Below are positions 15,121-60,544 of a stretch of 64,000 nt of DNA, in pieces. Position numbers and translations under genes: made by a program. The first letter of the stretch is position 1. The number at the start of each line of letters is the position of its first letter. The DNA is from a virus (lineage: Duplodnaviria; Caudoviricetes): positions 15,229 through 79,228 of IMG/VR virus record IMGVR_UViG_3300003962_000002; one strand, 5' to 3'. The notes below the pieces were generated by a model, which was not told where the DNA came from, ran no database searches, and saw only the letters and a program-made list of their open reading frames with translations.

Positions 15121-15273
15121 TTATTCATCTGCTGGTTCTGGAACGTTTCCGTCCGCAAGCCAGAGAAGGTATTGTTGATAGTCGGAGTTAGCGGGGTCTG
15201 GAGGAACTGTATAAGTAATTCCATCTTTGGTCATCCAGATATTATCACTGCCATAAATTAATTTAAAAGTCAT
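15121..15273 (-). CDS. 50-aa tail fibre assembly-like small protein (not in ORF track)
   Basis: MTFKL...VPPDPANSDYQQYLLWLADGNVPEPADE; GAGG RBS; pattern typical of small proteins that follow fibre genes. Confidence 0.8.
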   Translation of the reverse strand: MTFKLIYGSDNIWMTKDGITYTVPPDPANSDYQQYLLWLADGNVPEPADE

Positions 15274-55635: not shown

Positions 55636-56532
55636 TTATCGGCCTCTAAAGGCTGTGTTTGTACCCGTCTTAGCTTTCTCTAGTCCAGCTTTGATCAAGG
55701 CTCTTGAACCCATTTTCTTACGTGCTTCCCGTTCTTCTTCTTGGATTTTTGCAGAGTTTACTCGTGCGCCATCCGCAGCGCCTGGAACGGAATGATTAAC
55801 TACGATCTTCTTCTCGCCAAACAGACCTTTTTGTTTCGCTTCAGCAAGAGCCAGCCAACCTTCATGAGGATCTTCATAACCTTTTACCATTTTTTCAGCA
55901 AACTGTCTAAAATCTTCAGGAATACTGTCTATATCTTCTTTAATGCGATCCCTATACACTTGTTTACGGGCCTCTTGCTCCGCTTCATACTGTATAGCTT
56001 TGCTTTTGTAGCTCTCGACTTCTTTTTCTTTTTCTTCTAATTTTTGTTTGTAAGCGAGTTCTACTTCTGTTAGTCGAGCTTCACGATGAGCTAATTTATC
56101 TTCGATTGATCGCTTTTTATCCTCTTGTTCAGCTTTAAGAGCCTCTAGCTGCTTTTTAGCTTCCAAAGCGGATTCAGCTTCTTTCTTGATTTGCTCAATC
56201 TTTTCTTGAGTTTCTTTATTAATTTTGTCTAATTGATCTTGTACTTTAGTGCGAATTGCTTTATTTTCTTCTCGCAATTTAAGTACTTCTTTTAACGCAC
56301 TGTCTTTTGTCCAATCTTCTGGATTTTGTACAGTTTTGTCTGGGGTTGGTGCTGGTGTTGTTTCTTTTTGAACTTCTGTAACAGATCCAGTTTTTGCAAT
56401 AATGTCTTCGCCACGTTTTAGTTTATCTGACGTTGCATCCGACCCTACAATAGCCGTTTCTGTCGATGCGGTGATACTCGTCTCAGCCGCTTTACCTTCA
56501 CCTTTTTTACCCAATTGATTCAATAAATCCAT
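55636..56532 (-). CDS. Capsid scaffolding protein
   Basis: K/E-rich coiled coil (LREENKA.R); position between portal and MCP. Confidence 0.75.
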   Translation of the reverse strand: MDLLNQLGKKGEGKAAETSITASTETAIVGSDATSDKLKRGEDIIAKTGSVTEVQKETTPAPTPDKTVQNPEDWTKDSALKEVLKLREENKAIRTKVQDQLDKINKETQEKIEQIKKEAESALEAKKQLEALKAEQEDKKRSIEDKLAHREARLTEVELAYKQKLEEKEKEVESYKSKAIQYEAEQEARKQVYRDRIKEDIDSIPEDFRQFAEKMVKGYEDPHEGWLALAEAKQKGLFGEKKIVVNHSVPGAADGARVNSAKIQEEEREARKKMGSRALIKAGLEKAKTGTNTAFRGR

Positions 56533-56570
56533 TTTGTTCTCCTGGCTCTACCAGTAAAGTTAATAAAATC

Positions 56571-56921
56571 CTACCTATTTAGCAGATCTACTGCACCACT
56601 TGTAGGGAAAGTTTGTGAAAATCCATTAGTATTCATAGCATTATAATACGGATTATGAGACTTACTTACGTTTTGTTGTATGTTTGTTGGTAGTAATTTT
56701 ATCTCATATATCATGGACGGCGAGAATGCTGTTACTACTGGGGAAGTTAATTTAAAAGGTTGTTGTTCTTTTACTGAGGTTGTCCATGCTTCGTGTAACT
56801 TTTCCCATTCCGCATAACACACGTCGAAGTTCGGATTTTCCAAAACCACTACGTGTTGTCCGTCTGTTCTAAATACTATTACCCCGTAAACTACTTGCTC
56901 TTCTTTTTGTGCCTTGTTCAT
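56571..56921 (-). CDS. Hypothetical protein
   Basis: GAGG RBS; 116 aa. Confidence 0.7.
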   Translation of the reverse strand: MNKAQKEEQVVYGVIVFRTDGQHVVVLENPNFDVCYAEWEKLHEAWTTSVKEQQPFKLTSPVVTAFSPSMIYEIKLLPTNIQQNVSKSHNPYYNAMNTNGFSQTFPTSGAVDLLNR

Positions 56922-58720
56922 TTATTTTCCTCGTTGGTCCCCGTTTTTGTTCTTCTGCTTAGAACTGTCTTCCGCATGTTTAGCTCTGTTATCGATCTTA
57001 GCTCCTGATGCTTCAGGGCCAGTTTCTTTTTTAGGAGAGCCGTCACGTTGCAAACCAGCACTATCAAAAGTCTTAGCTATATCCAACTCAATCTCTCCTT
57101 GAAATTTAGCATTTTCGGCCATTTCTTGTTGAGTTTTCTTTACAGCTTTTTTAATCTCTTCCTCAGACATCCACGGATATAATTGTTTGTAAGCATAGGT
57201 GTCGCCTGTTTGACGAATCTTTTGCTCAATTATAATCGTTTCCATTTGAGTCTTTGGGTCCATAGGAAAACGAGGTTCTATGTAAGTAATCTCTAAGGCC
57301 GCATTTTCAGAAAACTTCTTGTCTCCTGTTTTTTCATAATGCTTATTCCAGAGAGTCTTAATAACTTGAAATAACTGTTGTTCTCTTTCGTTGAAGAGTT
57401 GGCCTCTACGACGATTTTGATCGATAACTCCGGCTTTTTCCATCCACAAAGCAAATCCAGAAGGAGACACTTTATCTCTGTATTTAGGCATCAATCCGTG
57501 ATTAACTCGGATCATATCCGTCATACTTTCAATAGACTTCAACAAACCAGTAATATCGGCTTTGGGATGCTCAAACTTGAAGTCGCCTTTTTCACCCACA
57601 GCAATGGCAGTATCTGGTCCTAGAGAAAAACCTAAAGCATTAGCGTCAGCATTTCCATCCCTAAATACACCAAAACCTGCGTCGTAGTTTCTAAAAGCTC
57701 CACCGGCTCCCAAACCAGAAGTACCAGTCAATCCACCAAATCGAGACTGGGCTGTGCCGCCTCTCAACTGATTAAAGTCGTCTACTGGTCTGCCTTGACG
57801 ATTGTTTACAGGACGCTCAACTCCAGTAAGAACGGGAACTCCAAATGATTGGAATTTAGCTATGTGGTTAAGGTCTGTAATCCTCATATTTACAGCATGA
57901 TTTGCATAGATAAGAGGTTCATTAATTGGTAGAAAATAGTAATGGGCTGGGTCGGAGTTAAAGAACGGTACGGCTGGTATAATTCCGTATGGATTCTGTA
58001 CTTCGATCTCGCTTCCATCTCCAGAGATCTGTCTGTGTGCGGAAGGACTCCAATAAATCATGTTTACTGAGCCTACTGCGGCTTTTTGCTTTTCGTACTT
58101 CTTACCCTTGTTTACGTTGATATCATTTAAACCATACGTCGAAGGGTTAGGGACGTTTGCTCCAGTAGGTGTTTGGCCAGAAATACTACGAAGTCCAGGC
58201 CCATGGTAGCTGTTAAAGCCGCCGAATTTACTACCAAATCCAATAAGTAATTCGGTGATATAGTATGGAGAAGCTCCATGACGTATATCATATACGCCTC
58301 CGTGCATTAAGTCTAATTGAACTTGTCCACCGTCGTTCTTCTCTACCATATGTCCTGTGTTTTCGTCGATAAAAGAAACTTTTACCAACACAGTACCTAG
58401 TAGTTTAGTCCAACGATCAAGCTTATCCATAGTCATCAAATAACGACTATGCTTCATCACCTCTTCCCAAAGCTTTTGATCTTTAGTTAGAGTTTTTCCT
58501 GTTTCTCTGTCATATACTCTGTAAATAGGTTTTTCTTTGTAAAGTATAGACGTATCATCTATAATTTCTTTAGTCAAATTTACAGGTAGGATTTGTTGCT
58601 TTTCTGGATTACGAAATTCTCGTACCAAATCCAACCACACGAATTCATCTTGGCGTCCTTCATAGAAAGCCAAAGCAATCTCAGTTATCCACTGACGATA
58701 GTACGCATCTTCATACAGGT
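56922..58720 (-). CDS. Portal protein, exon 2
   Basis: INLTKEIIDD.S.LY.E.P, G.V.VKV, IPAVPF, A..N..ITDL....KFQSFG, I.Y....P.D (SPP1-portal-like); frame extends upstream of the track start as YLYEDAYYRQWITEIA. Confidence 0.85.
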
Positions 58721-59018
58721 CGCTTATACTTTATGTTTCCACAAAGGCTAGACTATATCATCACCCTCGTCATAACACGTTAGGGGTCGGGCGCTCTCGG
58801 AACCGTTTATTGTTGGGACTCACGGCCTAGTCGTTGAACCTTTACAGCTACTTTTATTCCCGGCTGCACTTGGCTGCTGATTGCCCAATTTTCGATTTTT
58901 TCAAACTTTCACGATTGTCGTTGCCAACTGCGTTGTAGTAATCGAAACTCTAAGGGGTTTCCAGCAATTCACCCGATTTTACTATTTTCAACTTTCGTCG
59001 AAAAGGAATTCATAATTT
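58721..59018 (-). ncRNA. Group I self-splicing intron (298 nt, ORF-less, IA-like) in the portal gene
   Basis: P AATTGCTGGAAA (58958-69), Q AATCAGCAG (58874-82), R GTTCAACGACTA (58828-39), S GATATAGTC (58751-59); P1 GGAATTT/GAATTCC with U.G at the 5' splice site; P3 TCGGGTG/CGCCCGA; P9 CTTTGTG-GAAA-CATAAAG; terminal G; splicing restores the frame. Confidence 0.92.
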
Positions 59019-59088
59019 AAATTCCGATTGAAGCCAATCCACCTAATCTACTGGTTGGGTGGTTGGAAATTCCTAAATTAAAACTCAA
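59019..59088 (-). CDS. Portal protein, exon 1 (MSFNLGISNHPTSRLGGLASIGI + T)
   Basis: AAGGAGG RBS then TTG at 59088; 70 nt joins exon 2 in frame (ATT T|AC CTG = I Y L). Confidence 0.85.
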
Positions 59089-59090
59089 GG

Positions 59091-59508
59091 TTACCCTCCT
59101 TTTTGTCTTTTAGGACACCAATTACTTATATTATTAGCCATGCTCCTCTTTCTATCCAAAAATATTAAAGCATCATCGTACAGAAATTTTATAATATTTT
59201 TTGCGGGTTCGGCAGATTTTCTAAAATAGTACACATTGCTTTTACAATGTTTTGTTATTTTTGTAGTATTTAAATTTAAGGCTTTATTTATGAAATTAGA
59301 TACATACTCTACAACAAAAATATTTCCACACAAAGAGAATGTCGGTTTTCATAAACCTACAAAATTTATATAAATGTTCTACGTCTTTTTCAGCAAGACT
59401 AATTTGCAACAAATGCTGATAATTATTAACATTTCTATAAACATTGCCATCGGAAACGATAAACCCTAACCAATAAGCCTTTTCTTCAGTGTCTATTGTT
59501 TCCTCGGT
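59091..59508 (-). pseudogene. Degenerate free-standing LAGLIDADG homing endonuclease
   Basis: IDTEEKAYWLGFIVSDG (motif 1) in 59296-59508 with no valid start; C-terminal FLYDDALIFLDRK in another frame (59091-59333); second LAGLIDADG motif absent. Confidence 0.85.
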
Positions 59509-59513
59509 TTACA

Positions 59514-59546
59514 ACTCCTTAGGACACGATTAATATCCTAAGGAGT
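59514..59546. promoter_or_regulatory. Perfect 11-bp hairpin that buries the AAGGAG RBS of the endonuclease gene
   Basis: ACTCCTTAGGA-11nt-TCCTAAGGAGT. Confidence 0.65.
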
Positions 59547-59555
59547 GCTTGTGGA

Positions 59556-59768
59556 TTATGTGCGATCAGGGCCTTTGTGGGCTGATGCAGGCTTGCCTTT
59601 GGCTTTACCCGGCTTGTCGTTTGCTGCGCTATAGTCCGTTTCAGAACCGTCGCCCAGTTTCATTTCTTGAGGAACTCCAGGTTGCATGGAATTCATTTGA
59701 TCTACTTTTTTACCATGTGCGGGCAAATTAGCTGCCCCTTTTACTCGACGACCAGTACGCTGTGCCAT
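59556..59768 (-). CDS. Small basic, low-complexity protein
   Basis: AGGAG RBS; K/R/G/P-rich. Confidence 0.7.
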   Translation of the reverse strand: MAQRTGRRVKGAANLPAHGKKVDQMNSMQPGVPQEMKLGDGSETDYSAANDKPGKAKGKPASAHKGPDRT

Positions 59769-59787
59769 TTTAAACTCCTTGTGGCTC

Positions 59788-59994
59788 TTACTTTTTACCA
59801 GTAAGATTGTGGTTAAATTCTTTCACATCAATAGTTTCTTTAGGAACTCCAAGAAACCCTGTTTGACTACCTTTAATTGTTTCGCTTTGTTTTAAGATCT
59901 CTCCTACTGCAAAAGCAAAAGAATTTCCGACGCTTGTATCAGGGGGATTTCCTACCTGAGGACTCTTTCCTCTGTTTCTTTTTTTAGAAGCCAT
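59788..59994 (-). CDS. Small protein with basic N-terminus
   Basis: TAATG overlap; MASKKRNRGK. Confidence 0.65.
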   Translation of the reverse strand: MASKKRNRGKSPQVGNPPDTSVGNSFAFAVGEILKQSETIKGSQTGFLGVPKETIDVKEFNHNLTGKK

Positions 59995-60215
59995 TACTTA
60001 TATCCTTGTTTTTTAAGCCAATTTTCAGCAAAGTTATTAATCGCTTCCATGCGCTCAGTATAAGATTTTTTATTATACTTATCATTTTCTTCAGCGCCAC
60101 GAAATTCTAAAAACAAAGCTGCATACAAAGCATTCAAAGTTTCTGTATTTTTGGCTATCTCTGGCAATTCATTTAAGTTTATTTTAAATAAACGATTTTG
60201 CCTATACACTAACAT
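59994..60215 (-). CDS. Hypothetical protein
   Basis: 73 aa in operon. Confidence 0.65.
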   Translation of the reverse strand: MLVYRQNRLFKINLNELPEIAKNTETLNALYAALFLEFRGAEENDKYNKKSYTERMEAINNFAENWLKKQGYK

Positions 60216-60217
60216 AA

Positions 60218-60544
60218 TTATGCCGTCGCTGCAATAGCTAATCTTCCAGTACCGCCAGTTCTAGTAACCTTAATAGCATTAAAATTATGAGTACTATAAG
60301 TTACTGGAGTATTTGCTGTAAATGCTGTAGAACCAAAAAAATCTTGACCATTGACAGAAAACTCTACGGTGCCTGCTAAATCACCAGTAGACTGAACAGT
60401 AACTCTGGACATCCCACCAGCCATCTTAAGTACTTCTACAGTAACAGAAGCACTTAGCTCCTCAGTATACTCTCTTTGTCCAGATGCTATGTTTTGACGA
60501 ACTTGTTGTACGTCTTTTTTAGTATAACCTTTTTGTGCTGCCAT
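60218..60544 (-). CDS. Small beta-sandwich virion protein (putative)
   Basis: RVTVQSTGDLAGTVEFSVNGQDF. Confidence 0.65.
   Translation of the reverse strand: MAAQKGYTKKDVQQVRQNIASGQREYTEELSASVTVEVLKMAGGMSRVTVQSTGDLAGTVEFSVNGQDFFGSTAFTANTPVTYSTHNFNAIKVTRTGGTGRLAIAATA

Follow-up and report, generated by a model that had tools for sequence, protein, structure and literature searches.

A predicted group I intron without an open reading frame in the portal gene of an uncultured tailed phage

Introduction

Where does the portal gene of an uncultured tailed phage begin, when the start codon preferred by gene callers (TTG 58673) has no ribosome-binding site (RBS) and the frame stays open further upstream? 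The gene lies on the minus strand at 56922-59088 of a stretch of 64,000 nucleotides (positions 15,229 to 79,228 of the IMG/VR virus record IMGVR_UViG_3300003962_000002), here called the window, to which coordinates refer unless another locus is named. An earlier note, made from the letters alone, had proposed that the gene is split by a group I intron that lacks an open reading frame (ORF). Our analysis leads to the same view: with a probability of about 0.92, positions 59018-58721 on the minus strand are a genuine ORF-less group I intron in the portal gene. The sequence and structure of the ribozyme, the geometry of the splice sites and the agreement of the junction with homologous proteins are all direct observations of this analysis.

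The intron and its splice sites

The Rfam covariance model of the group I catalytic intron (RF00028, gathering score 50) matches 58729-59030 on the minus strand with 106.3 bits (E 2.6e-28, model positions 1-253), a strong result in the very check that the earlier note had named. The scans covered 58300-59500, the whole window and the full 79,228-bp virus record; the match was the sole one above threshold in the first two and again the sole one in the record. The positions given in the note for exon 1, the intron, P1, P3, P9 and the terminal G58721, together with its core elements, all hold, and the gene is laid out as follows.

59095..59101, minus strand: RBS AAGGAGG, 6 nt before the portal TTG start, overlapping the end of a decayed endonuclease frame
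59019..59088, minus strand: portal exon 1, 70 nt, TTG start at 59088
59018-58721, minus strand: group I intron, 298 nt, last base G58721
56922..58720, minus strand: portal exon 2, 1799 nt including the stop codon

Inside the intron we found no minus-strand ORF of 30 aa or more. Exon 1 has 23 codons, which after the start read SFNLGISNHPTSRLGGLASIGI, plus the initial T of the Tyr24 codon, and ends in ...GGA ATT T; exon 2 opens with the AC of Tyr24, followed by LYEDAYYRQWITEIALAFYEGRQ... Excision of 59018-58721 leaves a single open frame of 622 codons plus stop, in which the predicted ligated junction 59019/58720 reads ...GGAATTT/ACCTGTATG... (a slash marks a junction or splice site here and below); the short exon 1 with its AAGGAGG RBS is thus joined in frame to exon 2 in a 622-aa product, as had been claimed. 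No other pair of splice sites keeps the frame open. As to the frame upstream of the annotated TTG, the note was right that it runs on to a stop, but its reading of that frame has to be amended: after the TAA the genomic sequence gives ...SISDLYEDAYY, and YLYED does not form until splicing unites the two parts of the Tyr codon (T/AC).

In the unspliced RNA, a TAA spans the 5' splice site (ATT T/AA) and shares the T that begins Tyr24. Translation of this RNA would halt at the first bases of the intron, so portal synthesis would depend on splicing, which is how the note, too, had read the locus. A stop codon at the start of the intron has been noted for many bacterial and phage group I introns (PMC3984707). 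In the proposed course of events, the late transcript would be translated from the RBS and TTG 59088, and on unspliced molecules translation would end immediately at this TAA. The intron would fold into P1-P9, with the guide GAAUUCC holding U59019 in P1; a guanosine would attack after U59019, the freed exon 1 would attack after the terminal G58721, and ...GGA AUU U would be ligated to AC CUG UAU..., giving the messenger RNA for a full-length 622-aa portal protein.

Secondary structure of the ribozyme

The catalytic core of a group I intron is present, with P3-P8 and P4-P6 domains and P, Q, R and S elements. Its parts were placed by the Rfam alignment together with folding and covariation for the P3 5' strand and P4-P6 domain, with coordinates for the P7-P8 block, and with covariation for the 3' end.

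59005..59025, minus strand: P1, exon 59025-59019 with guide 59011-59005, loop 59018-59012
58985..59004, minus strand: P2, a hairpin of 8 bp with a GAAA tetraloop
58838..58976, minus strand: P3 5' strand and P4-P5-P5a-P6 domain
58976-58970, minus strand: P3 5' strand (3' strand 58793-58787)
58966-58961 with 58880-58875, minus strand: P4
58947-58940 with 58897-58890, minus strand: P5a
within 58874-58838, minus strand: P6/P6a
58751..58832, minus strand: P7-P7.1-P3'-P8 block
58832-58828 with 58755-58751, minus strand: P7 (GACUA/UAGUC), forming a pseudoknot with P3
58827-58822 with 58806-58801, minus strand: P7.1, a hairpin between P7 and P3'
58785-58764, minus strand: P8
58721..58748, minus strand: P9, possible P9.0 and terminal G
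58746-58740 with 58735-58729, minus strand: P9, 7 bp, GAAA loop
GC 58748-58747 with GC 58723-58722, minus strand: candidate P9.0, 2 bp

In P1, the exon sequence GGAAUUU pairs with the guide GAAUUCC, and U59019.G59011 forms the wobble pair at the splice site that characterises group I introns. P3 has 7 bp (TCGGGTG/CGCCCGA). The minimum-energy fold forms P1, P2, P3, P4, P5a, P6a, P7.1, P8 and P9. When the window intron was aligned with six related portal introns, RNAalifold predicted 65 pairs, more than half of which (36/65) are compensatory, i.e., changed on both sides, among them pairs of P3, P5, P5a, P6a, P7.1, P8 and P9. P7.1, with its invariant 15-nt loop, covaries across all seven introns, and from the position of this hairpin between P7 and P3' the window intron looks IA-like.

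Comparison with homologous portal proteins

A search with the exon 2 protein yielded 302 homologues at E <=0.001, and N-termini were counted over the best 120 of these. Eighty-eight of the 120 start with [MV][SA]FN[LF]G, and in 87 of these 88 the motif Y[LM]YED is unbroken, 82 times at the residue number predicted for the spliced protein (24) and five times one residue earlier; intron-less portals are therefore contiguous across the junction, the second check that the note had named, and excision restores a contiguous gene like these alleles. The closest full-length homologue (P0002, 625 aa, 82% identity) begins MSFNLGISNHPTSRLGGLSSIGVYLYEDIYYRQW..., and by tblastn its residues 1-23 match exon 1 (87% identity) and its residues 25-625 match exon 2 (82% identity). 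Y24, L25 and Y26, just past the junction, are invariant in an alignment of 39 sequences, and the intron thus sits in a conserved stretch. Mobile introns usually occupy such stretches. As a separate observation, five homologues encoded on long contigs have called starts at or just after the junction, namely P0050, P0057 and P0105 (all starting MYLYED), P0022 (MAFYEGRQ) and P0028 (MIYYRQW), and they may hide further interruptions at or near the window's site.

The alternative that survives best, although it is very improbable, holds that the intron-like stretch is an inactive relic, that the portal is a 583-aa protein translated from TTG 58673, and that exon 1 is a separate leader peptide or non-coding. 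The 583-aa form is the choice of the gene callers, and in an AlphaFold model of a homologue (pLDDT 49) the first 76 residues are of low confidence, so that a truncation of the N-terminus might seem tolerable. However, TTG 58673 has no RBS, exon 1 and residues 24-39 are conserved, including the invariant Y24, L25, Y26, R32 and W34, every core element is intact and covarying, and the junction falls exactly in frame.

Even less probable is a group I intron that uses splice sites other than 59019/58720. It could appeal to the Rfam alignment, whose 3' end at G58729 falls 8 nt short of the predicted 3' splice site, and to the weakness of P10, but an intron with G58729 as its last base would produce a stop (UUA UAA), G58723 would shift the frame, and a P1 wobble at U59020 or U59021 would need a 3' site after a base that is not G. 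Homologues, moreover, fix the junction between G[VI] and YLYED, and among the G residues only G58721 yields a junction that is in frame and agrees with them.

Several observations nevertheless weigh against an active intron in the arrangement described here. A convincing P10 pairing with exon 2 was not seen in the window intron, the candidate P9.0 has only 2 bp, and the fold as a whole adds no support, its energy z-score being only -1.42, a value usual for a pseudoknotted ribozyme in AT-rich sequence. We found no public RNA run containing the portal intron region, so that we infer splicing, and with it catalysis by the intron in vivo, from the DNA. The combination of intron, exon 1 and endonuclease remnant is found in one assembled record only, four public runs with related DNA have no cover at 59040-59420 or 58659-58785, and the tie between the remnant and the intron is one of position only. 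An assembly chimera of two co-occurring phage variants, for which the single record and the different arrangement of the related contigs from the four runs might be cited, is as improbable as a shifted splice site, since it would not yield an exon-complementary guide, a terminal G and an in-frame junction matching the homologues.

Identity of the host gene

The interrupted gene lies between the genes of the terminase large subunit (phrog_2) and of a 298-aa coiled-coil, scaffold-like protein, the latter being followed by the major head protein (phrog_212). We found no Pfam or PHROG match for the window portal protein itself; SPP1_portal (PF05133) matches six of 39 homologues (best E 2e-4), and Foldseek, run on a low-confidence model, placed only portals or connectors among its top matches (best E 2.7e-4, TM about 0.3). 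Likeness in sequence and fold to portals thus coincides with the position expected of a portal gene, flanked by those for terminase and for scaffold and capsid. Searching PDB sequences with a profile of the portal returned nothing useful, and the collection of phage isolates held no match to it by DNA or protein. The terminase and capsid proteins share at most 30% identity with those of phage isolates; for the capsid protein, the comparison with Pseudomonas, Stenotrophomonas and further phages of about 61 kb gives only about 30%. The portal family counts more than 300 proteins from metagenomes, encoded on contigs as long as about 118 kb, and has neither a Pfam or PHROG model nor a cultured relative.

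A near-identical sister phage

Four runs (X1-X4) of one biofilm-metagenome study contain contigs that match the window at about 99% identity over 56500-58604 and at about 97% over 59496-60300. The likeness to the exon ends exactly where the Glu63 codon begins (58604), and the sister bases before this point end in G and translate as the odd N-terminus of the protein P0001 (...VASRDARFLL/EKQQILP); from this break and this N-terminus we conclude that the sister phage carries an insert at codon 62/63, 39 codons downstream of the window's intron site. In two stretches of the insert, which correspond to window 58807-58887 and 58953-58979, the identity with the core of the window intron is about 95%, and the sister contigs have no aligned sequence over the 3' part of that intron. 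The apparent polymorphism in presence and site between such close genomes is a hallmark of mobility. Differences between sister and window in the flanks cluster at 57519-57906 and 59529-59747, which suggests mosaic exchange. The note's warning that gene callers truncate the N-terminus of the portal applies to both phages, with a 583-aa TTG form in the window and a 574-aa form (P0001) in the sister.

The endonuclease remnant upstream of the portal gene

One further feature adjoins the interrupted gene.

59091..59508, minus strand: decayed free-standing LAGLIDADG-type homing endonuclease gene, directly upstream of the portal

Against phrog_4645 ('endonuclease', 308 positions), 59508-59091 gives matches in two frames, to profile positions 102-149 with E 2.4e-13 and to 232-304 with E 4.8e-7, positions 1-101 and 150-231 being absent, and Pfam LAGLIDADG_3 matches weakly. 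The gene lacks a start codon before its motif (AYWLGFIVSDGNV), its frame is shifted near 59296-59348, and compared with the family profile an internal part is deleted. The stop of the remnant, 70 nt from where the intron is inserted, overlaps the RBS of the portal gene. The remnant is unrelated to the endonucleases carried within introns of relatives (see below), and a close relative was not found in IMG/VR. The intron may represent a mobile element in its ORF-less end state, and the remnant its former helper in 'collaborative homing'. Collaborative homing has been described for F-CphI, which is free-standing, and the ORF-less psbA intron of cyanophage S-PM2, and for T4 mobE and the nrdB intron (PMC3984707; PMC2790892; PMC6083498). 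The window shares with these systems an ORF-less intron and a free-standing homing endonuclease gene adjoining the interrupted gene. It differs in that the endonuclease gene, which in collaborative homing is functional beside the intron-bearing gene, is decayed here and of the LAGLIDADG type; that its product once cut an intron-less portal allele is conjecture.

Distribution of introns in the clade

Residues 1-100 of the portal were surveyed in 77 distinct related loci from IMG/VR and JGI metagenomes, and an intron at the window's site was found in none of them (0/77). The loci fell into the following groups, to which a further locus with an insert far downstream can be added.

65/77 loci: uninterrupted over residues 1-100
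4/77 loci: intron of about 880-920 nt at codon 45/46 (AFYEG/RQDEF), in L046:3636-4517, L048:2584-3500, L238 and L263
7/77 loci: an intron at codons 62-64 (FRNP..QQILP), about 1 kb long; short inserts in addition at three of the seven
1/77 loci: L070, a gap with frame change near residue 87 and no insert
further locus: L069, an 836-nt insert at codon 394/395 (L069:4665-5500)

The inserts at codons 45/46, 62-64 and 394/395 encode mutually related LAGLIDADG_2 endonucleases. Introns at codons 62-64 match RF00028 with 58-92 bits. Those at codon 45/46, in which the ORF lies between P7 and P3' and only 11 nt follow P7', were missed by Rfam even at E 0.1 and were recognised by eye from the P, Q, R and S core words; covariance scans therefore undercount such introns. 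In the codon 394/395 insert of L069 Rfam found no ribozyme, and this insert may be a divergent intron or something else.

The core of the window intron and the cores at codons 62-64 have a mean column identity of 73%, by which they clearly appear to belong to the same lineage. The window intron stops 8 nt after P9, where its codon 62-64 relatives have the ATG of their endonuclease, an end point that would fit either the loss of an ORF or its never having been gained. Across the clade, the first 65 portal codons contain several insertion sites for related introns, one of which is occupied in the window, and the portal gene of this phage clade is an intron hotspot. The core word of the P7.1 loop, GTGAGTCCCAACAATAA, occurs in at least 119 IMG/VR stretches, nearly all of them outside this portal family, and the ribozyme lineage is therefore widespread in uncultured phages. 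Among 118 GTGAGTCCCAACAATAA loci examined, six contain this portal family, all six with the codon 62-64 intron and none with an intron at the window's site.

Short inserts and unusual guides in relatives

Three lineages with a codon 62-64 intron also carry short inserts (34-57 nt) that break the frame 60-150 nt upstream of the full group I core.

L057:3487-3521: 35-nt insert at codon 45/46
L056, with identical inserts in L055: 43 nt at codon 45/46 (2353-2395) and 57 nt after codon 49 (2409-2465)
L258:2605-2638: 34-nt insert after codon 35

The L055 and L056 contigs, from two samples, are identical over 1420 nt. Each short insert contains a guide, a G of which can form a wobble pair with the exon U just before the insert. 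Covariation is seen in one pairing of exon and guide (GAGGGU/GCCCUC versus GAAGGU/GCCUUC), and 5' of the guide lie bases complementary to the following exon over 3-6 bp (P10). Every insert ends in G, its excision restores the consensus protein, and none contains a catalytic core. Such inserts are absent from all 70 loci that lack the codon 62-64 intron (0/70; hypergeometric P about 5e-4). Ribosomal bypassing of the T4 gene 60 kind was considered and rejected, as there are no matching take-off and landing codons.

The short inserts may be spliced by the neighbouring full core, that is, with a borrowed core. Alternatively, there may be one large intron whose splicing skips the mini-exons. Two small insertions lie within the short exon between mini-insert and full intron, i.e., 2 nt in L056 near 2480 (TTAG[AG]TAAGA) and, at the same place in L258 near 2700, the 6 nt TGACGT with an in-frame TGA (AAA TGA CGT CAA). 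Both would break the portal frame unless the stretch is spliced out or recoded. A single large intron would also explain the two insertions, but it would delete invariant portal residues.

Some introns at codons 62-64 are without a clear 5' guide.

L019:2952-3981: codon 62-64 intron without clear 5' guide
L057:3573-4545: the same
L013:3026-3999: the same
L010:2998-4003: the same
L056:2512-3500: the same

In several codon 62-64 introns, a strand resembling P10, one resembling P1 and a hairpin with a GNRA loop follow the ORF and lead directly up to the terminal G, and L019 and L057 covary with the exon at the strand after the ORF (AAUCCU/GGGAUU versus AACCCU/GGGGUU). Shuffle tests of the pairings between exon and tail were significant for some loci only, and a rearranged group I layout (core, ORF, guide, P2) in these introns is tentative. 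It is conceivable, though doubtful, that a swarm of related introns specific to the clade occupies the portal N-terminus, the window intron being its canonical, self-sufficient member beside non-autonomous ones, with core-less inserts perhaps spliced by a neighbouring core, guides placed after the ORF, and the sister phage representing a very recent move between sites.

Discussion

The introns of T4 td, nrdB and nrdD (sunY) and those of Staphylococcus phage Twort likewise place a group I ribozyme in a protein-coding phage gene, and they share with the window intron the P1 U.G pair, a GNRA loop on P2, a hairpin inserted between P7 and P3', G as the last base and an early in-frame stop. According to the literature, these T4 and Twort introns belong to subgroup IA2. 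Among their relatives, as in the present clade, ORF-less and ORF-bearing versions coexist. The host gene differs, the portal being a late structural gene and not a gene of nucleotide metabolism or DNA replication.

On this last point, the note had considered the intron unusual. Its host is indeed a late gene, but the claim was overstated, as group I introns in late phage genes have already been documented: in the terminase large subunit of Shewanella phage KASIA, where splicing was shown by reverse transcription-PCR (PMC8541194), of Bacillus phage Silence (PMC4599081) and of the Twort-like phage fRuSau02 (PMC5618024), in capsid genes of crAss-like Delta/Zeta phages (PMC7886860), and in terminase genes of Jug phages, for which metatranscriptome reads back 37 of 76 predicted introns (PMC12880540). 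In these cases, as in the window, an essential packaging or head gene is interrupted, gene callers split or truncate it, and virion assembly depends on RNA splicing (predicted here). A literature search found no published description of a group I intron in a portal gene. The portal intron is a further example of a well-known type of selfish element and leaves the knowledge of group I introns unchanged.

For this clade of uncultured, widespread phages, the finding means that gene callers truncate the portal wherever an intron occupies the first 65 codons, the correct product in the window being 622 aa. If the intron splices as its sequence predicts, it would be a clear case of virion assembly relying on RNA self-splicing. 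Together with its relatives it forms a natural series for the gain and loss of intron ORFs and for changes of site, comprising alleles without an intron, introns with and without an ORF at different sites and, next to the portal gene, a decayed endonuclease gene, and the main value of the locus lies in the corrected gene model and in the comparative series around it.

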